A DNA stretch of 64,000 bases from Promethearchaeota archaeon. Lineage in GTDB: Archaea > Asgardarchaeota > Lokiarchaeia > Sigyniarchaeales > SOKP01. This document shows, in pieces, positions 6,188 through 56,571 of this stretch (position 1 is its first letter; every line of letters begins with the position of its first letter). The position numbers and the translations under genes were made by a program. The notes below the pieces were generated by a model. That model was not told where the DNA came from. It saw nothing but the letters and a program-made list of their open reading frames with translations, and did not search any database. The stretch covers positions 54,285 through 118,284 of the forward strand of contig SHMW01000002.1 in the NCBI GenBank assembly GCA_008080735.1. The letters run 5' to 3'.

Positions 6188-6733
6188 GTGAACCTTATGA
6201 GTGATAAATGCGAAAATAATGTCGACAAAGATCTATTTTTAGATAAAATTGAGAAGCTCTCTTTAGAAATTGAAAAATTAACGTCAGAAGTCTATCAAAT
6301 GAAGCATAAGTTAGATAAAAGCAATAAAATTAATCGTTCATTTGGCTTAAAATCACTGGAAAGTTCTGAACCTCTAAATTTTGCTAAGGAAGTATTCGGA
6401 ATCGGAAGCCCGACAAAACGATATCTCCTATCAATAAGAGCTATTACAGAGATGTGGAAAAACCGCAAAAATGACTTTCTCATTACAATACGGCAGCAAG
6501 AAAAAGAAACTCATAAAGATCTTAAAGCATTAGGCATCCGTATTCCTATTGATGATATCAAACAAATTAGAACTTTATCTAGAGAGATCCTTTCTTTGTT
6601 ATATATCGCATGTGAACTGAAGGGAGTAGAGATTAACGAAATCTTGCGTGATATTTTGTTAGAAATTAATGAAGAAGGACTGGAAATGGTACGCGAGATA
6701 AAAAATAAAATGGTGTTAAAGAGCCATCCTTAA
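6188..6733 (+). CDS. Hypothetical protein: N-terminal coiled coil plus possible PC4-like domain
   Basis: Heptad pattern at residues ~15-50; ITIRQ...GIRIPIDDIKQI resembles a PC4-type beta-strands-then-helix unit. Confidence 0.55.
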   Translation: MNLMSDKCENNVDKDLFLDKIEKLSLEIEKLTSEVYQMKHKLDKSNKINRSFGLKSLESSEPLNFAKEVFGIGSPTKRYLLSIRAITEMWKNRKNDFLITIRQQEKETHKDLKALGIRIPIDDIKQIRTLSREILSLLYIACELKGVEINEILRDILLEINEEGLEMVREIKNKMVLKSHP

Positions 6734-6779
6734 ATATGAAAGAAACAATAAAAAGTTTGAAGTCCTTTAATTTTATAAT

Positions 6780-8171
6780 ATGGAAAGGTTCTTTTATCCC
6801 AACTCAATTGTAATCTTTGGTGCGAGTAAGAACGAAAAGAAAGGGGGAAATCACGTTCTTCGAAACATATTAAACTTTACCAGAGAAAATGTGTTTATAA
6901 TCCATCCTCGGCATCAAGAAATCTACGGAATTAAGTGTTATAGAGAAATTTCTAACCTTACACAAGAGGAGATTGATTTAGCAATAATAATCCTTCCCGT
7001 AGAATATGTGTTAGATACTTTAGAAGAGTGCTTACAGTTTGGAGTAAAATCCATTATTCTAGAATCGGGCTCTCTTTATATAAAAGATGAAAGTGACAAA
7101 AACTTAGAGAAACGAATTCAAGAAATCAAATCTAAAATTGGAGGGCATTATAGGAGCAGAATTATGGGACCAAATTCGATCGGGATATATTCTGCTAAAA
7201 AGGATGATAGTGGGCTTATTACTTCTCTCATTTATTTTGATAAGTTGCCAAAACTCAAAGAAAGAAATTTGGCCGTTGTTTCGCAGACAGGATTAACCCT
7301 TTCCGGGTTATTACAATCATATAATTATATTCAGGAATTAGGCATCTCTAAGATTGCGTCTATTGGTAATAAATTTGATGTGAATGAATCGGATATTCTT
7401 GATTTCTTAGAAAATGATGATGATACCGACGCAATTGGACTATATTTGGAAGATATTAAAGACGGTAATAGATTTAAAGAGCAATGCCGTCGTATTGTAA
7501 AAAAGAAGCCAATTATTTTACTTAAATCAGGAAAAACCGAAAAAGGGAAAAAAGCAATTATATCTCATACAAAATCACTTGCGGGCAATTATAAGGTCAT
7601 CGAAGCATTATGTAAGCAACTTGGCATCATTGAAGTGGATGATTTTGAAGAGATGTTTAACGTAGCTAAATGTTTGTTAAATCAACCGATTCCGAAGAAC
7701 AACCGAATTGGAATAATATCTATCTCTGGGGCTGGGACTGTCTTATCCTCGGATTTAAGCGAAAAATATGATCTGAGGCTAGTGGAGATGAATGAGACCC
7801 AAATTGAGGAATTACACCAAATTTTTCCAAAGTTTGCATGGCACGATATTTATAATCCATTAGATATTTGGTCAGCTGTGGAAAAGGTCGGGCCAGATAC
7901 TGCATATAAGTTCAGCGGGGATATTTTCCTTAAAGAAAATAATATTGACATCCTAATTTATTTTCTCACTGGAATCGAAGAGACTGAATTTGACTGGGAC
8001 ATCCTTCACGAATTCAATCAAAAATATCCCAACACTGCTATTTATATGGGATTCTTTGGAGGAGATAAAAAATTATTGCTCAAATGGAGAGAGGTTTTAG
8101 AAGACAAGTTAAATATCCCAACATTTGAATCTATCACTACCTTATTCCGAACAATATCCAAAATAATGTGA
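6780..8171 (+). CDS. Acyl/acetate-CoA ligase (ADP-forming), alpha-subunit-like
   Basis: FFYPNSIVIFGAS CoA-binding start, GPNSIG, SIGNKFDV, phospho-His SHT, NPLD. Confidence 0.85.
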   Translation: MERFFYPNSIVIFGASKNEKKGGNHVLRNILNFTRENVFIIHPRHQEIYGIKCYREISNLTQEEIDLAIIILPVEYVLDTLEECLQFGVKSIILESGSLYIKDESDKNLEKRIQEIKSKIGGHYRSRIMGPNSIGIYSAKKDDSGLITSLIYFDKLPKLKERNLAVVSQTGLTLSGLLQSYNYIQELGISKIASIGNKFDVNESDILDFLENDDDTDAIGLYLEDIKDGNRFKEQCRRIVKKKPIILLKSGKTEKGKKAIISHTKSLAGNYKVIEALCKQLGIIEVDDFEEMFNVAKCLLNQPIPKNNRIGIISISGAGTVLSSDLSEKYDLRLVEMNETQIEELHQIFPKFAWHDIYNPLDIWSAVEKVGPDTAYKFSGDIFLKENNIDILIYFLTGIEETEFDWDILHEFNQKYPNTAIYMGFFGGDKKLLLKWREVLEDKLNIPTFESITTLFRTISKIM

Positions 8172-44980: not shown

Positions 44981-45230
44981 AAAATAAGAAAAAGAGGTAA
45001 AAAAATTGTGAATTCTTCTTAGGTTTTATCCATGGATTGTCTCGAGAGCTTCTTATAATGATTGAGGACTGCTTGGCGCGCTGCGTATACAAACCCTCAC
45101 TTTACGTTCACACCGGTAATCGCTATCGTCTCATAAATCAGTGTATCTCCTAACTTTGCAGTGTCTAACACCTGTCGAATCTTGAATACATCGACAATAT
45201 CTTCCAAATCCCGTTTATTGGCTAACACCA
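44981..45230 (-). pseudogene. Duplicated 3' end of the small GTPase gene (direct repeat of 47402-47651), with nonsense mutation
   Basis: 8 mismatches in 250 bp by eye; CGA>TGA at 45097-45099. Confidence 0.92.
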
Positions 45231-45920
45231 ATTTTGATTGGCAATTTTCTCACATAAACGGGCTAACCGAAGTCGTGCTTTCCGCGGTTTTTTGAGCCCT
45301 TTTTCTTACGAGAAACCCGTCGATGTAGCTTTTTAAGGGGTGCCTCTGAGGAGCGATAAAACCGAGGGTTCGAAAAGGTCTTTTCTTCCCCTACTAAGAA
45401 TTCAGACGCAGCCATATCAAAGGCGGCAATAGCATCGCGATGAACCTCTTTAAAGGGAGAGACTTCCAGCTCCTCCTCAATTAAAATAGACACGTAATAT
45501 TTTCCGCTCTTGGTTTTCGAAACGGTCACGTGGTTAATGGGCTCATAAAAGCTCCTATTATCCTTAAATCTTATCCAGGTCTTGATTTTTGGAAGCTTTA
45601 TTCGCTTCTTGCTAAAATCTATCTTAATGTTATTATTCATATTATAGGTGGTGTAGGTTTATGTATGCTTCTTTGATTTAAACCTCGGATATCCTACTTT
45701 CCGAGCTGCTTTTAAGCCTTTAAAAAAGTTCTGAAAGGCGTCTAATAGATGCCGGTGTCATCGATTGTAAGGCTTTACTATCGACATCTCTCATGAACTC
45801 AAATTCTTGCTTGTTCTCCTTTTCGGTTTTATATTTATGAGCTTTTAAGGCTTCAGAATCTTCTTTGAGCTGTTGATATACCCTGGTGCGTTCTGCTAAC
45901 AATTGATTCCATAAAAGAAG
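45231..45920 (-). pseudogene. tnpB: TnpB (IS605 family) N-terminal/central remnant, frameshifted, RuvC C-terminus missing
   Basis: LWNQLLAER, VDSKALQ, GYPRFKSK, KLPKI, TVSKTKSGKYYVSI, AFDM, RRVSRKKKGSKNR, then ARLRLARLCEKIANQ in a shifted frame. Confidence 0.88.
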
Positions 45921-46025
45921 TTATTCACAGCTTCAGTTTATATCCGCCCCAAGTCAACATCTGACTCTTTTCTCGCATCTCTTCTGACGCATGAGCCATA
46001 AAGGATAATATAGATAAACTTATCC

Positions 46026-46109
46026 CTATAAAACTTTTAAATCTTTTTTTAACTCTAACAAGATATCCTTCATCTCAATAATCAGGTTATTTTGTTCAAA
46101 AGATTTCAT
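46026..46109 (-). other. Micro-ORF A (27 aa) within an imperfect direct repeat
   Basis: MKSFEQNNLIIEMKDILLELKKDLKVL*; 46072-46131 is 48/60 identical to 47219-47278. Confidence 0.4.
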
Positions 46110-46232
46110 ATGTAATCATTTCCAATAAATATTATAAAAAATAGAATGCTTATCAAAATATCCTAATTTCAGAAAATATCTATTATAAAGAAATTTACGG
46201 AGATGATCTTCTTAGGATATAGGGAAACCCTT

Positions 46233-46538
46233 TTACTTCTTAAAAAAAGAATCCAAATAATCATATCCTTCTAGGAGATCGTCTTTATTAATTTTAGATT
46301 TAATCCCTAAATCCATAACTAAATCCATAAATTCTGATAATGGGATATTCGCAAGGTATGCCGCTTTCCCTATAGAGAACCTCCCTTCAGCATATCCTTT
46401 TATAGCTAAATAAATCGTACCATTAGTTAGCAGATTTCTAACAATTTCTGACTGTTCCTTACCCATTTCTGCAGCCATAAGATCAATTTGTCTCTCCAAA
46501 TTTTTATCTATTCGAACAGATATTACTTTACCCATCAT
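46233..46538 (-). CDS. UPF0175-type antitoxin with RHH N-terminus
   Basis: VISVRID...SEIVRNLL (RHH) and G.FSIGKAAYLA (HTH). Confidence 0.85.
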   Translation of the reverse strand: MMGKVISVRIDKNLERQIDLMAAEMGKEQSEIVRNLLTNGTIYLAIKGYAEGRFSIGKAAYLANIPLSEFMDLVMDLGIKSKINKDDLLEGYDYLDSFFKK

Positions 46539-46545
46539 TCTCCCC

Positions 46546-47055
46546 TTAATTTTTAATTTTATTTTTAAAATATTCTAAATCTTCTTGTTTATACCATCCT
46601 AAGGTTTGTAAGTTATTTAGTTTTCGAAGAGTTTTATTTTTAGTTGTTATATTTTGTAAAAAGCAACGATGAATAAACAATAGCGTAGTGAAATATTTTA
46701 TATCCAGAACTTTATATGCTTTTAAGGCTCTATAATCATCTGTGGCTAAGAAGTGTGCATTTTTCTCTAAATATAATATAATCGCTTCCGCTTCCCCCTC
46801 ATGGATATTGAAATCGCCCATAATTTTATTTCTTTCTTCTATATTTTTAATATCTTCAACTCTTATTTGTTTATCTTTAATGAATTTTTCAATCCGATAA
46901 GCATCAATTTTTTTCAATATTTTACCTACTTCCACGACTTCATCAAAAACCGCTTTAGGTATCTCAATTTTATCAAATAGTTGAGTTAACAAATTTATCA
47001 TTTCTAATTTCGATACTAATATTAAAAATGAAGAATCACAAACTAAAAATGGCAT
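46546..47055 (-). CDS. PIN-domain toxin (DUF3368/VapC-like)
   Basis: VCDSSFLI, IP.AVFDE, GEAEAI, ATDD. Confidence 0.88.
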   Translation of the reverse strand: MPFLVCDSSFLILVSKLEMINLLTQLFDKIEIPKAVFDEVVEVGKILKKIDAYRIEKFIKDKQIRVEDIKNIEERNKIMGDFNIHEGEAEAIILYLEKNAHFLATDDYRALKAYKVLDIKYFTTLLFIHRCFLQNITTKNKTLRKLNNLQTLGWYKQEDLEYFKNKIKN

Positions 47056-47071
47056 CTACTTAGCAATAAGA

Positions 47072-47099
47072 TGTTTACGTAAATTTACTTATGTAAACA
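47072..47099. promoter_or_regulatory. Inverted-repeat operator upstream of the TA operon
   Basis: TGTTTACGTAA-N6-TTATGTAAACA (10/11), ending 16 bp before the toxin start. Confidence 0.6.
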
Positions 47100-47175
47100 A
47101 GAAAATGTTAACAACAATATAATATGGATTTAAGACTTTAAGGATTTATATAAGTCCTCCTAAGTATATATCTTT

Positions 47176-47256
47176 CTATTCTCCCATCTTTGGTCTAATC
47201 TTTAAGATGATTTTCTTTATCTTAATAATCTGCTCGTTTAGCTCAAAAGATTTCAT
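47176..47256 (-). other. Micro-ORF B (26 aa) within an imperfect direct repeat
   Basis: MKSFELNEQIIKIKKIILKIRPKMGE*; paralog of micro-ORF A. Confidence 0.4.
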
Positions 47257-47439
47257 ATCCATTCATTTCAAATAGATACTCAAATATATTACTTTCTCTG
47301 ATAACTTCTTATTCTAATTAAAGGTGAGTATCTCTCTTTTTTTCTTTATTCTCAGAAATTGGAATAGAACTGAAGATTATTGTAAGATCTGAGAGTTTGA
47401 CAAAATAAGATAAAGAGGTAAAAAAATTGTGAATTCTTC

Positions 47440-48054
47440 TTAGGTTTTTTCCATGGATTGTCCTGAGAGCTTCTTATAATGATTGAGGACTGCTTGGCGC
47501 GCTGCGTATACAAACCCTCGCTTTACGTTCACACCGGTAATCGCTATCGTCTCATAAATCAGTGTATCTCCTAACTTTGCAGTGTCTAACACCTGTCGAA
47601 TCTTGGATACATCGACAATGTCTTCCAAATCCCGTTTGTTGGCTAACACCACCATTGGAACCTCTGGAGGCTCGCCGGGCCCTTTTGGAAGTAATTTATT
47701 ACCATAAAATTTTAACAGTTCTTTTAGGGACCATATATTTTCCTCCCATTGATCAATCAAGCTGTCCCATACAAAGATAATCGCATCCGTACCTTTTAAA
47801 ACCGTTTGCCTTTGGAACTTGTGCCTTCTCTGGCCTGCTACAGTATATACTTGGAAAACTACGTTGGAAACTTTTGCAACGACCCGATCAAAAAAGAGCG
47901 TTCGTCCAGTTGGGTCTTGAATTTGCTGCATATCGCCCGAAGCTAAACCTTCTTTATTATACACCCATTCAAGAGCCGTAGTCTTCCCACCTAAGGAAGG
48001 TCCATAGAAGCAGATTTTAAATACTAAAGTTCCATCTCCTCGACGACTTGGCAT
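47440..48054 (-). CDS. Small GTPase, MglA-like
   Basis: G1 GPSLGGKTT, RTLFFD switch I, G3 YTVAGQ, G4 NKRD, G5 TIA. Confidence 0.92.
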   Translation of the reverse strand: MPSRRGDGTLVFKICFYGPSLGGKTTALEWVYNKEGLASGDMQQIQDPTGRTLFFDRVVAKVSNVVFQVYTVAGQRRHKFQRQTVLKGTDAIIFVWDSLIDQWEENIWSLKELLKFYGNKLLPKGPGEPPEVPMVVLANKRDLEDIVDVSKIRQVLDTAKLGDTLIYETIAITGVNVKRGFVYAARQAVLNHYKKLSGQSMEKT

Positions 48055-48278
48055 GTAATTTACTAACCTTGATTTAAATTAATTTAACTTTTTTTATATT
48101 AAGAAGATAATAGTTATTGAATATAAAAATATGTATTCCAAAAAATTTTATGATTTAGACTCAAATGGATGAAACCTAAAGGTAGAAAAATTTTGAATAT
48201 TTTGAGAATTGCAGCAAAAGCCGAGAAATCAACCAACACTAATTTTTTGAAAAAGAGAATTAAATGTTATGGATTATT

Positions 48279-48392
48279 TCAATAATAGCTATTTTCAATG
48301 CTCTCCACCCACTCTTCTTGGTCTGAAGTGAGCTCGATATTGAATCCGATATGAATTTCGTGTAAATGTTTTAATTTGGTGATGGACGCGGG
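48279..48392 (-). pseudogene. C-terminal fragment of an LRR gene
   Basis: My translation PASITKLKHLHEIHIGFNIELTSDQEEWVESIENSYY* fits LPxSIxxLxxLxxLxLxxN. Confidence 0.7.
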
Positions 48393-49031
48393 TTAGACTT
48401 TTCAATGAAGAGGGCTTAGAAGGAGGAGGAGGAATGAAGAGGGCTTAGAAGGAATGGTTCCCAATACACCTCCTGGGCGACCATCTCGTCTTAGCGAGGA
48501 GCAAGAGGAACAATTACGTGAGGATATCTCCAAGCACCCCCGTGAATTAGGATATGAGTTTAGCAATTGGGAAGGGAAGAACGTTTCCCATCACATTGAA
48601 AAAGTCTTTGATATAGAGATAGGGGTTCGTCAGGTACAGAGAATCTTGCATAAACTCGGATTTTCGCTTCAACGACCCAAATATGTATTTCCTAAAGCAG
48701 ATCTGGATAAACAAAGAGAATTTAAAGAGAATTTTAAAAAAGTTTGGCTACTCTCGGAAAAGACGGCGTAGTTCTATTCCAAGATGAAGCTAGGGTCCAA
48801 TATTCGCCCACTATCACCAGAATGTGGGCATTGAAGGGACAAAAACCAGAAATCAACACATATGGTGGACGCTCCCGGCAGCACTTGATTAGGGCAGTTG
48901 ATCCTGGTTCAGGAAAAGTCCATGTAGTGTTCTCCAAAACGCTAAAAGCCGGACAATTTCAACATTTTTTAGAAGGTCTGCTTTTTAAATATAAGGATAA
49001 AGGAAATTGGAAAAATTCCTCTCAAGTGTAA
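48393..49031 (+). mobile_element. IS630-family transposase internal fragment (wHTH + DDE, -1 frameshift, both ends truncated)
   Basis: NEEGLEG..P...PGRP, LHKLGFSLQRP, AAAAAAG slippery site then VLFQDEAR; 21-bp duplication at 48404-48424 and 48433-48453. Confidence 0.88.
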
Positions 49032-49660
49032 GAGACGATCCTCCGATTTACCCTCTTCATACACGGTAAGCGGTTAGCTATCTTATAGGCTATTAACTTA
49101 AATTATATAATTCGCGCCCACTCTCCCGATGCGATGGCGAGTTATCCTTTTTTGATTTACTCGTTCTTATTATCTGACGTTTTGGATAGTGTTTTATCTC
49201 GTGAGTTACCTTATGATTTTATCTTTATAAACATTTCTGTTCGACACCTTGATTTGGGTTTCGACATGGCTCATTATTTGGATTTTGTAGAGATTTGGTT
49301 CTCAATTGAGCTCCCGAATATTTTGCTAAATCACAAAATTCATGGTTTTAAACTAACAAATGCTCGAGCACAAATCCGCACACTCTTTATGAAAAGATAG
49401 AGTATCTTCCACTTACTTCCCATCCTTTTTTACCTATGTTCATATGAAAGGAGTAGCAAATCGCTTTCAATGGTAAAAAATAAAAGCTTTATAGTAAAAA
49501 ATAAAAATTAGAAACGCATATTGAAGAATGAAAAGTTCAGTATCAAAGTCACAATGAAAATTTAAGACTTCACAATTTTAGTTTAAAAATACTATGTGCT
49601 AATTTATAGTAACCGAAACAATTTAGTTACCAAGTAAAAAATTTTAAGGAGCAATATTAC

Positions 49661-51418
49661 ATGAAGCGAACAATAAAAATCGCACTTATCGTGCTGGTTT
49701 GCGTGTGTGGGGTTATGCCCACGGGGATGATCGCGCCCGTGGCGGCACAGTCCCAAGACTCTGGGCTCGGCTTCGAGTTCAGTAGTGATATCGTGACTAA
49801 GACCTTTTCCATGTATAAAGAATATAATAATGAAACCTTTTCCTACAAATATAACGGGGTATCATTTCATGAGTTCACTTGGATTTACAACACCTATTGG
49901 GGAGAGGACGGCTATTTTCATGTTATAGAAATAACTGATGAAAGTGAGATAATACAATTTAATCACGAATATAACACCACAGTTTCCGGATATTTTCGAA
50001 CTGAGATGACACTCGATATGTATGAAGTCAAGATTACGTTCGGAGATTCTTACGAGATGAGGTTCTATGCCTTAAAGAACGGCTCGTTTTTTACCGAATA
50101 TTATCAAGATTATCGAGGAAATTCAATATATCGCTTTGATATTATTTATACCACTTATACCACAGTAGAGAAGATATATCTCAATGAAAATATGGAAACT
50201 CTTCTCAGCGAAGAGATAATCGACGTTGAAGAAGATGTTGGGTGGGGTGGTACTCCGGATGAGGATATACGTGTTCGTGATGATTTTAGGGTATTTTATT
50301 ATAACCAAACTGCATCGTTTGCGGCTCCGCTGGTAATGATAAACCAAATGTTTATCACACCGAATGGTCAAAAAGTCGCGTGGGGTGAGTTTATGTGGGA
50401 GATGATTGCCTTTAATGATAATAACAATGATGGGTATTATAGCGCCGATACGAATTTTTACGATGACCCGGAATTTGAGGAAAAAATCTTGCCATACATA
50501 CTCGATAGCTATGTCTATTATGATACTCCTGGAGACGAACCCATCAGAGAGATAGATCAATCCTTCCCGAATGATATGAGCGTCGCGGACGCATCATCAT
50601 TAATTAATTTTAAAAAGCCCACCCTTTCGAACGGCACTCTATCTTGGGGAGTTGATTATACACATTTTCCACTTATCGCGAACGGGACATTTGCCCTTAT
50701 TTTACCCGAAATTTCCTATGCAGATTCCTTGAAAGCCGATTATTCCTTCGATTTTGAATTTTTTCTCAATGAAGATGACACACAGTTGGATATCACCTCA
50801 GGATTTACGCTTACCAACTCATCTCAAACAGAATTTGCAATGCTGATGGATGGTATGAGTTTGTGTGTCCCGCAATATTCTTACTTGCTTTCATCAATGA
50901 AGATCGACCAACAATTTTCCGATGCGATAACACGAAAACAAGAGGTATTTGAATTCGAAGGGGAAAAAGGAATAGTATGCGAGATAGATATGAGCGGTCT
51001 CAAGGAACCCTACACCCTTTATAATCACTCGGATGAGAACAAGGCACTAATATATGATTGTGTGGGAGCAGGGGTGAGTAAGATCATCACCACCCCTATG
51101 CAAGGGGCAATAACCCCAGCAACTACTGATTATACACATTCATTCGAACACATGACGTTCTTACCCAACCTCGTATTTTCGGTAGGTGATCTGGTACAAG
51201 ATGATCCGCTTCTACGGGAAAGTTCGAACGCCAGTCGACTCCTCTCGATCGAGACAAAAAATTATCCAATCTGGTCGGGCAACTCGTTTTATCACGACCC
51301 ATCGCTCAAGGTCGACCTCGCCCCACAGCTCCCCTTGCTTGAGATCGGCATCGTACTCATCTGCGGAGTCATCGGGATAAGCGCGGTAGCCCTGCTCTAT
51401 CGTAAATTTAAAAAATAA
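49661..51418 (+). CDS. Secreted cell-surface protein with signal peptide and C-terminal TM anchor
   Basis: Signal peptide ending VAA; acidic Tyr/Thr-rich body; DNNNDG motif; TM helix plus YRKFKK tail. Confidence 0.8.
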   Translation: MKRTIKIALIVLVCVCGVMPTGMIAPVAAQSQDSGLGFEFSSDIVTKTFSMYKEYNNETFSYKYNGVSFHEFTWIYNTYWGEDGYFHVIEITDESEIIQFNHEYNTTVSGYFRTEMTLDMYEVKITFGDSYEMRFYALKNGSFFTEYYQDYRGNSIYRFDIIYTTYTTVEKIYLNENMETLLSEEIIDVEEDVGWGGTPDEDIRVRDDFRVFYYNQTASFAAPLVMINQMFITPNGQKVAWGEFMWEMIAFNDNNNDGYYSADTNFYDDPEFEEKILPYILDSYVYYDTPGDEPIREIDQSFPNDMSVADASSLINFKKPTLSNGTLSWGVDYTHFPLIANGTFALILPEISYADSLKADYSFDFEFFLNEDDTQLDITSGFTLTNSSQTEFAMLMDGMSLCVPQYSYLLSSMKIDQQFSDAITRKQEVFEFEGEKGIVCEIDMSGLKEPYTLYNHSDENKALIYDCVGAGVSKIITTPMQGAITPATTDYTHSFEHMTFLPNLVFSVGDLVQDDPLLRESSNASRLLSIETKNYPIWSGNSFYHDPSLKVDLAPQLPLLEIGIVLICGVIGISAVALLYRKFKK

Positions 51419-51598
51419 CCCATCCTTATTTTTTTCTATTCTCTTTTTGGACTACTTTTCAAGCTATAATGCAAGATACAACGCCCAGATGGAGTCGTTT
51501 AAATGAATCAATTCGTGGATAATTTCAGAAAGAAGTTTGAATACCCAGAGATTTAAGAGTAGATCATAGATGAGAGATGAAAAGAAGGGATGGGAGGG

Positions 51599-51687
51599 TG
51601 GCTCCTATCGTCCGAGGGGGGCTTTTTTGAGGGGTGTGGGCTCATTTTTGAAATTCTAAAGTCAACCAGCTGAGACGATAGGAACCA
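51599..51687. repeat. 89-bp element with 14-bp terminal inverted repeats
   Basis: TGGCTCCTATCGTC ... GACGATAGGAACCA (13/14). Confidence 0.5.
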
Positions 51688-51761
51688 TAGGTTTTATGAT
51701 TAGTATTATGCTTTCTCATTGCCCCTTTATAAATAGCAATGATATGAAACACGCATTATGT

Positions 51762-51997
51762 CTATTGAGGCGGATCCTTTCCAATATAATTATATTGGAT
51801 ATATCCTCGTTCCATATAATTCAGAGTAATCTCCAGCGTTTTGTTAGGGTTTTTGCCAAGAGAAAAAAGAACGATGGGACTGTTTTTATCTTTACTTCGA
51901 ATAATAAAGATTTCCTTTTTCACTGAATTATCTGTCTGCTTTAAAATCCGTACCTTTTCAATAATATCTTCTTGTTCAAAAGGAGGTGTATCCTCGG
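51762..51997 (-). pseudogene. Headless 3' fragment of an unknown gene
   Basis: Open frame TEDTPPFEQEDIIEKVRIL...YIGKDPPQ* starting abruptly at the LRR breakpoint. Confidence 0.45.
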
Positions 51998-51999
51998 TT

Positions 52000-52765
52000 T
52001 GGATACGGGGAGATGATCGAGAGGGGTTGTATCTGACAAATCTAATACAGTAAGCAATTAAAGATTCCCGATGGAATCCGGGAGCGATTCAAAGGGACAA
52101 TCTACTAAATATAGTTCCTTTAAGTTGGGAAGGTTGGCGATATTATCTGGAAGGGTGGTAAGATTATTATGGTTAAATTCTAAGATTCTTAGGTTTTGTA
52201 ATTCACCAATATTTTTTGGCAGCGAGAAAAGCCCATTCCCCTGTAGCTCGATTTCCTTTAGATTTTGGAGCATCCCAACGCTTTCAGGGAGTGTTTCGAG
52301 ATGAGCGTTTTGGACACAGAAAGACCGTAGATTTTTTAGATTTCCGATACTTTCTGGAAGTAAGTCCAACGGGATGTCCGAATCATAATCTGGATCCGCA
52401 AATAGGGCAAATTCTTCTAAATGTGTAAGCTTTCCTAAATTCTCCGGCAACACTTCTATTTTCCCGTCATAAAGATAGAGATCCGTCATTGGCTCATCAT
52501 TTTGCTCAGATTCCTCATTTATCTGTTTATTTTCTAGATATTTGGAGATCTCTTCCAATAATCGGACAATTTTTTAATTGCGTTCTTTCACCGCTAGTTT
52601 ATCGAGAATTCCTTTCCACAGATCCATATTAAAATATACCATCTTTTCATGATTAAATGTGGGTAATGATTGTGTTCGAATCATGCTTTTAAATTGTAAA
52701 AGAATCTATTTTGTGGGATTTTGCCTTAATAATTCAAGAAAGAACTGTTCTTCTTCTGGACGCAT
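52000..52765 (-). pseudogene. Leucine-rich repeat protein, 5' portion with three in-frame stops
   Basis: LPESIGNLKNL-type repeats; the frame extends from ATG 52765 through TAG/TAA into 52558 and past TAA 52058 to ...LDHLPVS. Confidence 0.85.
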
Positions 52766-52918
52766 TTTGAAATATCAGTTTTCACCATAATTTTAACTTA
52801 TACTAGGTCTCTTAGTTTTAATACGTTTCTTTTTCAATGTTTAGGAATAATTTAGTATAGAGGATTCATTATAAATCAAAAAAAACCGTGTATTGAAATG
52901 AGTTTACAAGATTCTTTT

Positions 52919-53470
52919 TTAACTGAATTTTTTTCTCACATTCCCTGCTAACCATCCCGATTTGGTAGATTTGATGAAATCAAATTCATTCAAATACGGT
53001 TTGATATCCAGAACTGGGGTCTTGTCTAAAATATCTATATTCTTCACGAATATTAGGTTATTTTCTATTTTCTCCAATTTCAGTATTGAGAGTCCGATGG
53101 GATTAGGGCGGAAGGGTGTACGCGTGGCGAAAACTCCTTTCTTCTCATTATCCAAGAAAGGTTTTGATTGAAGGGGGACCGGCAATTTCACCAAATCAAA
53201 GAAGTAAATACAATAGATATGTGAGAAGCCATCTAAATCTTTCAAACCAGCTGAATATTTGTCAAAAATTTCAATTTTTCCCCTTATTTCAGACATCGAA
53301 AACTGAATTGGGATACCTTTTAAAGTTTTTAGTGGAGAATGAAAGATCCCAATGGGATTTAATGAAATCTCGTCAATAGGATTTCTTCCTTCAACCTTGT
53401 GAAGTTTTCTTGTAAGAATATCCATACCTTCCGTGTCTTCAGTATCTGCGCTTTTTTTTATTGGTGGCAA
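52919..53470 (-). CDS. tsaA: TrmO/TsaA tRNA methyltransferase family
   Basis: GLKDLDGFSHI, GVFATRTPFRPNPIGLS, TPVLDIKPY. Confidence 0.9.
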   Translation of the reverse strand: MPPIKKSADTEDTEGMDILTRKLHKVEGRNPIDEISLNPIGIFHSPLKTLKGIPIQFSMSEIRGKIEIFDKYSAGLKDLDGFSHIYCIYFFDLVKLPVPLQSKPFLDNEKKGVFATRTPFRPNPIGLSILKLEKIENNLIFVKNIDILDKTPVLDIKPYLNEFDFIKSTKSGWLAGNVRKKFS

Positions 53471-53641
53471 CTTAAGTCAAATTATATGGTGATATTTGAA
53501 AAAAAAGGTTTTTTTAATTTATGTCCTCTGTAAGAGTCGAGATGTGATAAACTTTTTTAATGGTCTATTTTAAGCTTAATGAACTTTTAATAAATATAGA
53601 ATTTACCAAGAAAGCTTAAAATAAAAATGAAATGATCTAAA

Positions 53642-54712
53642 TTGAACAATACCCAATATTTACGCCCGATTATTAAGCAATTCAAAAGATTAAAGAAAAT
53701 TCCATGGACTCACTTAACTAATCTTCCAACCCCGATCGAACGCCTTAATGGTCTTGAGAAAAAACTGAATTTTAACCATATCTGGATAAAGAGAGACGAT
53801 CTTACGAGCCCCCATTATGGGGGAAATAAATCTCGTAAGCTTGAGTATCTGTTGGCTGGAGCAGAACATGAAGGCAAAAAGATTATCAAAACGGTGGGGG
53901 GGATAGGCTCTAATCACGCCGTTGCCACGAGTATCTTTTGTAAGCTTTTAGGGATGAAATGTAAGCTTTTTTTAGTCCCGCAACCGAATTCGGAGCATTG
54001 TCGGACAAATCTGCTTTTAGATTATTATTATGGTGCCGAATTAAATTATTGTGAAGATCCTTCAGAATATCCAGAGGATATTGATATTCCTCGTGGAGGG
54101 ACAAGCCCGATCGGGAACTTAGGCTATGTAAACGCGGCATTGGAACTAAAGGAGCAAATAGATGAGGATATCTTACCTGAACCTGATATAATCTTTGTCA
54201 CCAAAGGCAGTTCTGGCACTCTAGCGGGATTATTACTCGGATTTGAGCTTTTAGGTCTCAAAACCATATTATACGGTGTTACGATTATTAACTCAAATAC
54301 AAAGGAAGATGTGATCACCCATGCGATGGATACTTGGGAGTTAATGAAGCATACTCATGACAATTTATGTGAAGTAGAACGTGAAAATTTGAAAAATCGC
54401 TTGGTGGTATTGGATAAATTTTATGGTGAGGGTTATGGATATACCACAGTGAAGGGAGAAAATGCTATTAGATTGATCAAAAAAACCGATGAGATACTCC
54501 TTGATTCTACTTATACAGGCAAAACGATGTCTGCTATGATTTCTTTTATTCGTTCGAATAAGAACGATCTTCTCGATAAACACATTCTATTTTGGAATAC
54601 GTTTAATTCGGTAAATGTCAATGAAAAAATAAAAAACCTAAATTATCGGGTTTTGCCCAAGGAGTTTCATAAATTTTTTAATGGGACAATCTCTATCGAA
54701 AACACTATCTAA
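53642..54712 (+). CDS. PLP enzyme, D-cysteine desulfhydrase / ACC deaminase family
   Basis: PTPI, WIKRDD, GGNKSRKLE, SNHA, GSSGT.AG, LDSTYTGK. Confidence 0.9.
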   Translation: MNNTQYLRPIIKQFKRLKKIPWTHLTNLPTPIERLNGLEKKLNFNHIWIKRDDLTSPHYGGNKSRKLEYLLAGAEHEGKKIIKTVGGIGSNHAVATSIFCKLLGMKCKLFLVPQPNSEHCRTNLLLDYYYGAELNYCEDPSEYPEDIDIPRGGTSPIGNLGYVNAALELKEQIDEDILPEPDIIFVTKGSSGTLAGLLLGFELLGLKTILYGVTIINSNTKEDVITHAMDTWELMKHTHDNLCEVERENLKNRLVVLDKFYGEGYGYTTVKGENAIRLIKKTDEILLDSTYTGKTMSAMISFIRSNKNDLLDKHILFWNTFNSVNVNEKIKNLNYRVLPKEFHKFFNGTISIENTI

Positions 54713-54982
54713 TCTATAATTTCCCCTTGTAATTTTCCCAATAGTTTAATGAATATTGTTATTTTTTTTATTGGAATGAATCTTTGAAGAATACCGAGAA
54801 ATTTTGGACGTGTGCATGCCCCATCCGTTCGATTTCACGTAAAATTGCTTCGGATAGTTTCTCTTCCATTTAAATAATTACTATCTTCTCTAGGACATTT
54901 TTTCTTAGGATCTCTGAATAGACCAATAGAAAATTCTCTATAATAGGTAAATTTAAGGGATATAATGTAATAATAAAAAAAA

Positions 54983-55708
54983 TTATTTAATAAGTAAATT
55001 TTCTAACCATTTCGGTAAGATAAATCCAAAATAGAAGCAGATTGATGAAAATATAAGTATAAACCGAATGATGGGAAGAGTTATAAAATCTAAGGGGATT
55101 TGCGAATCTGCTATTGATCCGATTGTAAAAAGAATAAAACTTGTCAAGAGAAATTTTCCCTTTAACTTTATAATTGCTTGATCAGACCTTATAGATTCTC
55201 GAGAAATAAGAATACCTACAAATAATATATAAAAAATTGTCAAAGTAAGACCGATTTGCAGAAAACCTCGATATTCCACATCTGTTATGCCTTGTAATAT
55301 ACCTAATTGTGTTTCCTGTAGATATTCATTTGAGGAAAATATAAATAACAGGGTTTCCCATACTATTGCGATTATTATTACAATAGCCATAAGAATTCGT
55401 TTTTTATTTTCGAATTTCAATTCTGTTAAAGCTGCTGTGAATAAAATATGAAATCCTGGAATTGCAATGTTTCCCAGTATTAAGTATTGAGTATCTGTAA
55501 GACCAGACCCACCAGTAATTAAAGCTTTTAAAAAGGAGACTGTAGAAGACCACCAAGGACACGCGATTAAAATAATCGCAAATCCCATATATAGAATTGT
55601 TTTTACTCTATATTGGAAATATCTTGAAATTATTATTATTCCTACGATTGTAGAAATAATAACAAAAACGAGACTTAGAGATCCATTTAATATACTATTA
55701 ATATCCAT
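54983..55708 (-). CDS. Stand-alone 7TM membrane protein (paralog 1)
   Basis: Seven hydrophobic helices; RES.RSD....KLKGKFLL motif. Confidence 0.75.
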   Translation of the reverse strand: MDINSILNGSLSLVFVIISTIVGIIIISRYFQYRVKTILYMGFAIILIACPWWSSTVSFLKALITGGSGLTDTQYLILGNIAIPGFHILFTAALTELKFENKKRILMAIVIIIAIVWETLLFIFSSNEYLQETQLGILQGITDVEYRGFLQIGLTLTIFYILFVGILISRESIRSDQAIIKLKGKFLLTSFILFTIGSIADSQIPLDFITLPIIRFILIFSSICFYFGFILPKWLENLLIK

Positions 55709-55827
55709 AAAATATTCCCTAAAATAGATATTATAGGTGGAAAATGCATTAAAGGATAAATATCTTAGCTATTAATATTAACAACAAATTGAGATAAATC
55801 GGAAATTTCGACTAAAAAATAATTGGT

Positions 55828-56571
55828 TTAAGCCATCATTTTATCTCCTATTAATAATTTAGCTAGCCTATCGGACATTAAAAAACCCAAATAATATTCT
55901 ATCGCACTTGAGATCAATAAGATTCTAATTATTATTAAGATTATCGGATTTGTGAACCCTCCCGCATCGAATATTCCTCCAATCGCCAATGAAAACATTC
56001 CTGCTAAAATAAACTTCCCTTTAAGCTGGATTTTTGGGATATCTGATTTCATAGATTCTCGAGCAAATAATATACCTGTGATTAGAATAGTACCAATTGA
56101 AAACATAAGAAATGATAATCCATACCATTGATGCTCCGAATTGAAATTTCCTATAGTTGCTATTTGGTCGGGATCGCTAAACAAAAAATATATGAAAAAG
56201 ACTTCATATAATCCACAGATGATGATATATGGGGGAAATACTTTTTTAAACCAATTTGGATAAGCTAGTTTTAAAAATGAATACATCCAACATAATAGAG
56301 CAATAAAAATAAACGCATCGCCGAAGAATAAAAATTCAATCTGAGTAAATTCATAATTAAAGAGTAGATAGGCAAGAAAGGAAAAAGCGGAGCCCCACCA
56401 TGCAGAACTCAAGAAGATTAAGGCTAATCCTACTGTGATTAATTCCTTCATCTTAAGTTCAAAATATTTGGTAAGAATTCGAAGACCAATAATTATGGCT
56501 ATAAACACAAAAATCACACTTAAAATTCCATAAAGAATCTCATAGCCTTGTATTCCATTTTGGAGCATCAT
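55828..56571 (-). CDS. Stand-alone 7TM membrane protein (paralog 2)
   Basis: Seven helices; RESMKSD....QLKGKFIL. Confidence 0.75.
   Translation of the reverse strand: MMLQNGIQGYEILYGILSVIFVFIAIIIGLRILTKYFELKMKELITVGLALIFLSSAWWGSAFSFLAYLLFNYEFTQIEFLFFGDAFIFIALLCWMYSFLKLAYPNWFKKVFPPYIIICGLYEVFFIYFLFSDPDQIATIGNFNSEHQWYGLSFLMFSIGTILITGILFARESMKSDIPKIQLKGKFILAGMFSLAIGGIFDAGGFTNPIILIIIRILLISSAIEYYLGFLMSDRLAKLLIGDKMMA

Follow-up and report, generated by a model that had tools for sequence, protein, structure and literature searches.

A leucine-rich repeat (LRR) gene in a 64,000-nt stretch of Promethearchaeota archaeon (Lokiarchaeia; Sigyniarchaeales; SOKP01; assembly GCA_008080735.1, contig SHMW01000002.1) was found to be split in register by about 3.6 kb of patchwork DNA, which lies between two copies of a 10-bp target sequence, begins and ends inside gene fragments, and carries none of the transposon or integrase hallmarks that were searched for. 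The whole stretch is referred to as the window, and all coordinates are those of its 64,000 nt; the assembly is a 4.1-Mb metagenome bin of 140 contigs, 93% complete and with 7% estimated contamination. Non-transpositional illegitimate integration, of a microhomology or end-joining type, into a dispensable gene is somewhat favoured as the explanation, and the event is most likely one old case and not a new kind of mobile element.

The 5′ part of the LRR gene reads in one frame with zero indels over 255 codons, from 52765 to 52001, contains matches to the Pfam domains LRR_14, LRR_4 and LRR_8, and ends with ...LDHLPVS, after which the frame enters unrelated sequence. A tail on the same strand, 3.6 kb away at 48392-48282 (minus), reads PAS-ITKLKHLHEIHIGFNIELTSDQEEWVESIENSYY, and its last five residues (ENSYY) are identical to the C-terminus of P0043 (MBD3213459.1, 289 aa, from a Candidatus Lokiarchaeota bin), which falls in the 90% cluster of P0002 and reads ...LDHLPTSITKL...ENSYY. 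When the two parts were joined as 52765-52001 (255 codons) plus 48383-48282 (34 codons), with X placed at stops, the resulting 289 codons aligned with the 289 residues of P0043 end to end, gapless, at 70.6% identity. P0002 itself, a 181-aa metagenome protein retrieved by a protein search with the 5′ part, was 68-73% identical and crosses the junction uninterrupted as ...LDHLPAPITKL... (that is, ...LDHLPAPITKLNYLYEIHIGFDIELTPEQEKWVNSIEK), and a more distant intact homolog of 298 aa in genome G022 (38-44% identity) has the same layout as the joined gene. The gene is rare: among 400 Asgard genomes, P0043 was matched at E <= 1e-45 only here and in G022. DNA encoding the intact orthologs was not recovered: the contig of P0002 did not come up in a metagenome scan, nor the P0043 genome in a scan of genome contigs or in the search of 400 genomes.

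Since both parts match the same ortholog, consecutively, in register, and with a combined length of exactly 289 codons, they are halves of a single gene split in two. Origin from two paralogs was ruled out by the gapless P0043 alignment, the nearest LRR paralogs inside the same genome being only ~40% identical. The sequence-only reading had described such an in-register split, had named different paralogs for the two parts as the finding that would speak against it, and had proposed splicing the parts and searching for an uninterrupted ortholog; its coordinates held throughout, all 289 of 289 codons align, P0043, P0002 and the G022 homolog run through the junction, and both parts match P0043.

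Three in-frame stops in the 5′ part stand opposite E, Q and Q of P0043, and are therefore nonsense substitutions; recoding and mini-introns were ruled out by this one-to-one correspondence in the gapless alignment. By the same alignment, the LRR gene is a pseudogene, carrying three nonsense substitutions and the 3.6-kb insertion. Two of the three stops are Gln-to-TAA changes, which fits a strong GC-to-AT substitution bias in a genome of 33.6% G+C.

The insert is flanked by two 10-mers, on the minus strand CCCGTATCCA at 52009-52000 and CCCGCGTCCA at 48392-48383, which match at 8 of 10 positions; two 10-mers drawn at random from this window agree at 8 or more of 10 positions with a probability of ~0.001. 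Target sequence of exactly 10 bp (CCC-GNN-TCC-A, encoding P-x-S plus one base) stands on both sides of the insert, with zero target bases lost, because both halves keep the P-x-S codons and fit the 289-codon length. The target-like duplication that had been noted from the letters at 52000-52009 and 48383-48392 was confirmed, and comparison with the ortholog makes it an exact one. The mismatch consists of CG in the left (tail) copy vs TA in the right (5′) copy, two adjacent GC-to-AT transitions at a CpG. Orthologs have P-T-S (P0043) or P-A-P (P0002) at this site; the tail copy encodes Ala, as in P0002, and the 5′ copy a deviant Val.

The imperfect repeat would fit either a once-perfect duplication that later decayed, or a single crossover with a circular donor bearing an imperfect match. 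In the 5′ LRR part, 111 of the 2268 possible single-base changes yield a stop, and the presence of three stops would imply roughly 8% neutral change; decay of ~8% predicts ~1.6 mismatches in 2 x 10 bp, where 2 are seen. Coordinates of these and all other features are collected in Table 1.

Table 1. Features of the split LRR gene, its insert and the flanking locus (window coordinates)
Feature	Position	Strand	Description
5′ part of LRR pseudogene	52000..52765	-	255 codons, ATG at 52765 to TCC at 52003-52001, plus A at 52000
In-frame stops in 5′ LRR part	52708-52706; 52576-52574; 52060-52058	-	TAG; TAA; TAA
3′ tail of LRR pseudogene	48279..48392	-	PAS-ITKLKHL...ENSYY, stop at 48281-48279
Right repeat copy	52000..52009		plus strand TGGATACGGG; minus strand encodes P-V-S + 1 nt
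Left repeat copy	48383..48392		plus strand TGGACGCGGG; minus strand encodes P-A-S + 1 nt
Insert	48393..51999		3,607 bp, between LRR codons 255 and 256
IS630-family internal fragment	48393..49014	+	Pfam HTH_33, HTH_32, DDE_3 (positions 2-78 of 146)
29-bp tandem duplication	48404..48453	+	two exact 21-nt copies with 8-nt filler GGAGGAGG between
Spacer	49015..49660		A+T-rich; 88-aa ORF at 49134-49400
Surface-protein gene, intact	49661..51418	+	585 aa
Spacer	51419..51764		no recognisable coding content
Ig-like surface-protein fragment	51765..51998	-	78 codons, from right junction to mid-domain
Arf/Ras-like small GTPase gene	47440..48054	-	conserved anchor of the locus
Genome-specific segment	48157..55840		LRR pseudogene + insert, TrmO, PLP enzyme, 7TM protein
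TnpB N-terminal remnant	45263-45640	-	in second insertion
RHH-PIN toxin-antitoxin pair	46233-47055		in second insertion

The insert has a G+C content of 39.1%, vs a genome mean of 33.6%, which places it at the 99th percentile of 3.6-kb windows. Its left end opens within an IS630-family transposase fragment that spans orfA from ~residue 73-78 to orfB ~residue 90 and breaks off just ahead of the second catalytic Asp. Relatives at loci L021-L026 consist of two overlapping open reading frames (ORFs; ~190 + ~185 aa) and are 55-68% identical to the fragment at the amino acid level; the fragment has no N-terminal helix-turn-helix, its DDE triad is missing the second D as well as the E, and neither end of the element is present. 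The 29-bp tandem duplication shifts the orfA frame 11 nt from the left junction, and has the look of a fresh slippage-type event amid otherwise decayed DNA; as a candidate for junction filler it was rejected, as it lies 11 nt within IS630-derived sequence, and it is regarded as an independent slippage event. The A+T-rich spacer that follows is possibly the upstream region of the surface-protein gene; a homolog of its 88-aa ORF was searched for, and none was found.

The 585-aa product of the intact gene has a signal-like N-terminal segment and a C-terminal membrane anchor, and matched no Pfam or PHROG family. Relatives of this protein are patchily distributed, occurring in 27 of 154 genomes of the order, nearly all within the same archaeal family, and genomes that have them often hold two or three copies. 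The top full-length relative is in G003 (37% identity), and a partial paralog with an in-frame TAG lies at 21778-22482 of C70 (G000). For the Ig-like fragment at the right end, the sole non-self match among 1.84 billion representative proteins was P0041 (E 1.8e-9), a protein of 1681 aa with 14 Bact_surface_Ig-like (PF16403) stretches, seven of which match the 78-codon fragment. Repeat-by-repeat alignment showed that the fragment covers the end of one PF16403 repeat and the start of the next, and it is therefore an internal piece of a large surface-protein gene. Both insert ends fall mid-gene, the left in IS630 orfA and the right in a PF16403 repeat, so that the earlier description of an insert of ~3.6 kb that starts mid-IS630, ends mid-gene and carries an intact surface-protein gene plus fragments proved accurate.

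That description had also noted the lack of transposon ends, and no inverted repeats pairing the regions near 48393 and 51999 were found at the insert termini. The insert DNA, its 50-nt termini and both junctions were single-copy in the 4.1-Mb assembly, a uniqueness to be read with the 93% completeness and with the fact that repeats are often missing from bins. No other IS630 N-terminus was detectable in the genome with a hidden Markov model (HMM) that was built from five relatives and run on six-frame peptides of the whole genome. The insert ORFs contained no integrase, recombinase or viral family (Pfam, PHROGs), PHROGs gave no virus or plasmid signal, and no tRNA or other Rfam family was found across 47000-53500; the only repeat flanking the insert is the imperfect 10-mer, which lies within a protein-coding gene, with no att-like tRNA site.

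IS630, a member of the Tc1/mariner-IS630 superfamily, duplicates TA only, and the duplication here is 10 bp and not the TA expected. This IS630 copy did not cause the insertion, because it belongs to a TA-duplicating family and lacks its ends as well as a functional transposase. At the left junction, coding sequence derived from IS630 (R/W-V-R-L-F-N; W-V/I-x-x-F-N in relatives) starts within the last 1-4 nt of the repeat, which leaves no room for an element terminus there. These last 1-4 nt of the left repeat copy (G to CGGG) can be read as LRR- or IS630-derived, and up to 4 nt of junction microhomology is possible on this alignment.

The split gene lies beside the Arf/Ras-like small GTPase gene, whose product is 82-96% identical across genera of the family and which has upstream sequence conserved as far as 48156. 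In the genus-mates (G003, G006), an ortholog of 55840-56571 (a seven-transmembrane, 7TM, gene) follows the GTPase gene at a distance of 0.2-1.4 kb, and nucleotide homology to the window ends at 48156 and restarts near 55840-55882. The gap between the GTPase and 7TM genes is 7.7 kb here and ~0.2 kb in G003 (L011), and it holds an M29 peptidase gene in G006 (L012). Because 48157-55840, which also contains TrmO and a pyridoxal phosphate (PLP) enzyme, is missing from the genus-mates, it is interpreted as a variable slot. The TrmO gene (52919-53470) is found in relatives on another contig or 58 kb away. The GTPase is unusually conserved, and the 100-bp region upstream of its gene is 88% identical in G006, despite accessory DNA inserted on both sides.

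A second insertion of ~2.2 kb (44981-47651) lies 1 kb to the left of the LRR insert, at the same GTPase gene, and holds a TnpB remnant and a toxin-antitoxin pair. A 250-bp duplicate of the GTPase 3′ end, 97% identical with ~8 differences, brackets this insertion, and homology stops abruptly at 45230; from this arrangement, it looks like either a circle integrated by homologous crossover or a duplication-insertion. With this insertion and the segment that genus-mates lack, the region is a hotspot.

For the LRR gene, we infer as follows how the DNA was joined, in what order the events ran and where the DNA came from. A 289-codon accessory LRR gene would have occupied the variable slot upstream of the conserved small-GTPase gene, and 3.6 kb from another Loki-type genome or element would have interrupted it between codons 255 and 256. 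The incoming DNA may have been a patchwork already, or may have been made so during joining, from an end-less IS630 copy, a whole surface-protein gene and an Ig-like piece. Joining would have proceeded without a transposase acting on element ends and without a site-specific integrase, uniting arbitrary DNA with a broken or exchanged target, and would have left the insert flanked by 10 bp of target, which read CCCGCGTCCA along the coding strand, with no target base lost. Today the LRR gene carries three nonsense codons, and the captured surface-protein gene has stayed open. Sub-mechanisms that would fit are the joining, by Ku and ligase, of a staggered break whose ends had been filled in, a crossover with a circular donor, and replicative template switching.

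Genes for end joining were found in the genome. A bacterial-type Ku (254 aa, 145 bits) is directly followed by a 298-aa ATP-dependent ligase in an operon (G000 C25, L067:6475-8165, minus strand; Ku at 7401-8165, ligase at 6475-7371), and a LigD-type 3′-phosphoesterase is encoded on another contig (L076; C10:24970-25308). The Ku-ligase locus is syntenic in G003, G006 and G017, including the TPR and orf259 neighbours, with amino acid identities of 61-80% for Ku and 63-71% for the ligase, and is therefore not contamination; Ku was found in just 7 of 154 genomes of the order. Since the operon and the LigD-type phosphoesterase are encoded, end joining would be enzymatically plausible here. Among archaea, non-homologous end joining (NHEJ) was described as known only from Methanocella paludicola in a 2026 review (PMC12993045), Asgard lineages were reported to hold only partial sets in a 2023 preprint (10.1101/2023.09.30.560322), and a 2025 Ku phylogeny that includes 19 archaeal Ku sequences does not mention Asgard archaea or Lokiarchaeota (PMC11936186).

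How the DNA was joined was weighed on these observations. In Ku/ligase end joining, fill-in of a staggered break would have been followed by its ligation to a loose fragment or to several, which would explain why both insert ends are arbitrary and mid-gene, and would agree with a patchwork make-up typical of multi-fragment capture and with a Ku-ligase operon that is kept in the genus beside the LigD-type phosphoesterase. As the specific route it is rather unlikely, since a source of breaks with 10-nt overhangs is not known here, the repeat copies are not identical, and a LigD primase-polymerase was not found in the 93%-complete bin, which makes the Ku set incomplete when measured against Methanocella paludicola. 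The 29-bp duplication lies 11 nt inside the insert and hence supplies no junction filler, and a 6-bp palindrome (GTATCC...GGATAC) that spans the right junction is not continued in the way fold-back synthesis predicts, its flanks not being reverse complements, and was taken as chance. Also rather unlikely is a model in which the chromosome and a circular donor (a plasmid, excised island or recombination circle) underwent a single crossover at the imperfect 10-bp microhomology, even though it would account together for why the repeat is imperfect, why no target was lost and why the insert opens at an arbitrary point. A crossover in CCCG would keep the donor's TA-TCCA at the 5′ junction and the target's CG-TCCA in the tail, in line with the P0002-like Ala of the tail copy, the deviant Val of the 5′ copy, and the IS630-derived sequence readable through CGGG, and the neighbouring 250-bp, 97% identical islet resembles the homologous-recombination version of this topology. 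On the other side, no gene is rebuilt when the insert is closed into a circle in silico, neither a circular element nor a donor turned up, and the IS630 N-terminus HMM misses the right end of the insert, where extension by tblastn is weak. A circularly permuted IS630, with the orfA N-terminus at that right end, found no support, as tblastn over the circularised junction extended only weakly, driven by the motif FNEEGLEG, and the HMM did not rank that end.

Alternatively, the insert could be an old transposition, in which either an element or a composite or pseudo-end substrate, moved in trans by a DDE transposase of this genome with 10-bp duplications, entered the LRR gene, its ends having decayed or never been canonical. 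Three DDE_Tnp_1 (IS4/IS5-type) matches, candidates for such a transposase, are present in the genome, insertion-sequence debris lies at the locus (the IS630 fragment and the TnpB remnant at 45263-45640), and the decay indicated by three LRR stops is enough to blur short ends. This origin is nonetheless improbable, as the left end has no space for a terminal repeat, no inverted repeat links the ends, the ends are repeated nowhere in the genome, and IS630 itself duplicates only TA. A much less credible alternative, and a very improbable one, is that the contig fuses reads of different strains or loci and that the split is not real; the source is a bin of 140 metagenome contigs whose contamination is estimated at 7%, but at neither junction is there a repeat of a length that could mislead an assembler, and two independent chimeric joins would be needed that leave in-register halves totalling exactly 289 codons.

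Several points weigh against non-transpositional integration. A clean 10-bp duplication without target loss is a signature of DDE transposition and is the best argument for that rival, and the IS4/ISH8 group of ISfinder gives duplications of ~10 bp. Microhomology at the left junction amounts to only 1-4 nt and requires CGG to be read as a mutated Trp codon, the Ku set has the gap described above, and the donor arrangement was found in none of the searches, for what is one single event. Further, the Ig-like fragment, the tail and the fragment of IS630 contain 0 stops between them, where ~4 are expected at the decay derived from the LRR stops; therefore, either the LRR gene had already died when the insert arrived, or the argument from age for the two mismatches is loose. 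The preference for integration over transposition expressed in the sequence-only reading thus stands in part: no tested hallmark of transposition or site-specific integration was found and Ku and ligase are present, but sequence alone cannot choose among end joining, circular-donor crossover, template switching and an old 10-bp transposition.

The cargo had also been called foreign, and it appears to be so only weakly. Its G+C content fits acquisition from another genome, but the IS630 and surface-protein families occur within the same archaeal family or order and are Loki-type, not those of a foreign phylum, so that the DNA most probably came from a related archaeon or from an element of such an archaeon. 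Searches for a donor or mobile unit showed no flank similarity around the closest homologs of the 585-aa gene, and DNA comparison with 40 relatives gave only piecemeal weak matches.

Integration of this type is familiar from both bacteria and eukaryotes, and no Asgard route is established by a single decayed event, so the suggestion of an undescribed route of gene acquisition was not upheld. Homology-facilitated and double illegitimate recombination were reportedly described in Acinetobacter baylyi by Hülter and Wackernagel in 2008. Common to double illegitimate recombination in bacteria and to the present case are arbitrary DNA without element ends, junction microhomology of a few bases, and the possibility of both gene disruption and gene gain. 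The bacterial cases differ in being experimental, in naturally transformable hosts, and in mostly replacing or deleting target bases, whereas here 10 bp were duplicated and 3.6 kb gained in an Asgard host, in an event known from its sequence alone. Illegitimate recombination at microhomologies in bacteria is also the subject of the SPDIR preprint (10.1101/2023.11.22.568220).

Prokaryotic Ku/LigD NHEJ is recorded in Mycobacterium and Bacillus and in the archaeon Methanocella paludicola (PMC12993045, citing Bartlett et al. 2013). The Lokiarchaeial genes resemble it in the bacterial-type Ku beside an ATP-dependent ligase and in the stand-alone LigD-type phosphoesterase, and end joining can capture loose fragments; they differ from it in that a LigD primase-polymerase was not found in the bin and in being known as genes alone. 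With insertion of a DDE transposon, the locus shares a short direct target duplication flanking the insert and the absence of target loss, but it has no terminal inverted repeats, complete transposase, second copy, or room for a left end. Known Asgard mobile elements, including aloposons, integrate site-specifically with integrases, mostly at tRNA genes (PMC8813620, PMC11529989). As in Campbell-type integration, direct repeats flank a segment carrying accessory genes; unlike it, the locus lacks an integrase and a tRNA target, its repeat is imperfect and just 10 bp long, and the 3.6 kb consists of gene fragments without a coherent element.

A wider reading is that the genus uses its Ku-ligase module, NHEJ-like as in eukaryotes, to patch breaks with any DNA at hand, so that accessory genes would be gained recurrently in variable slots without transposase or integrase, with the LRR split and the 250-bp islet as two scars of this activity; this is a long shot. 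Taken alone, the locus is one decayed scar in a junk-rich variable region, of a kind of event already known from bacteria and eukaryotes. If non-transpositional integration is correct, it would be a cleanly resolved gene gain in an Asgard archaeon, with an intact ortholog as the empty-site reference, in which an open surface-protein gene was acquired by an insertion that is neither transpositional nor site-specific, in a lineage with a Ku-ligase operon. The main value of the locus would lie in its use as a well-anchored test case in a genome whose Ku-ligase operon is unusual for archaea.

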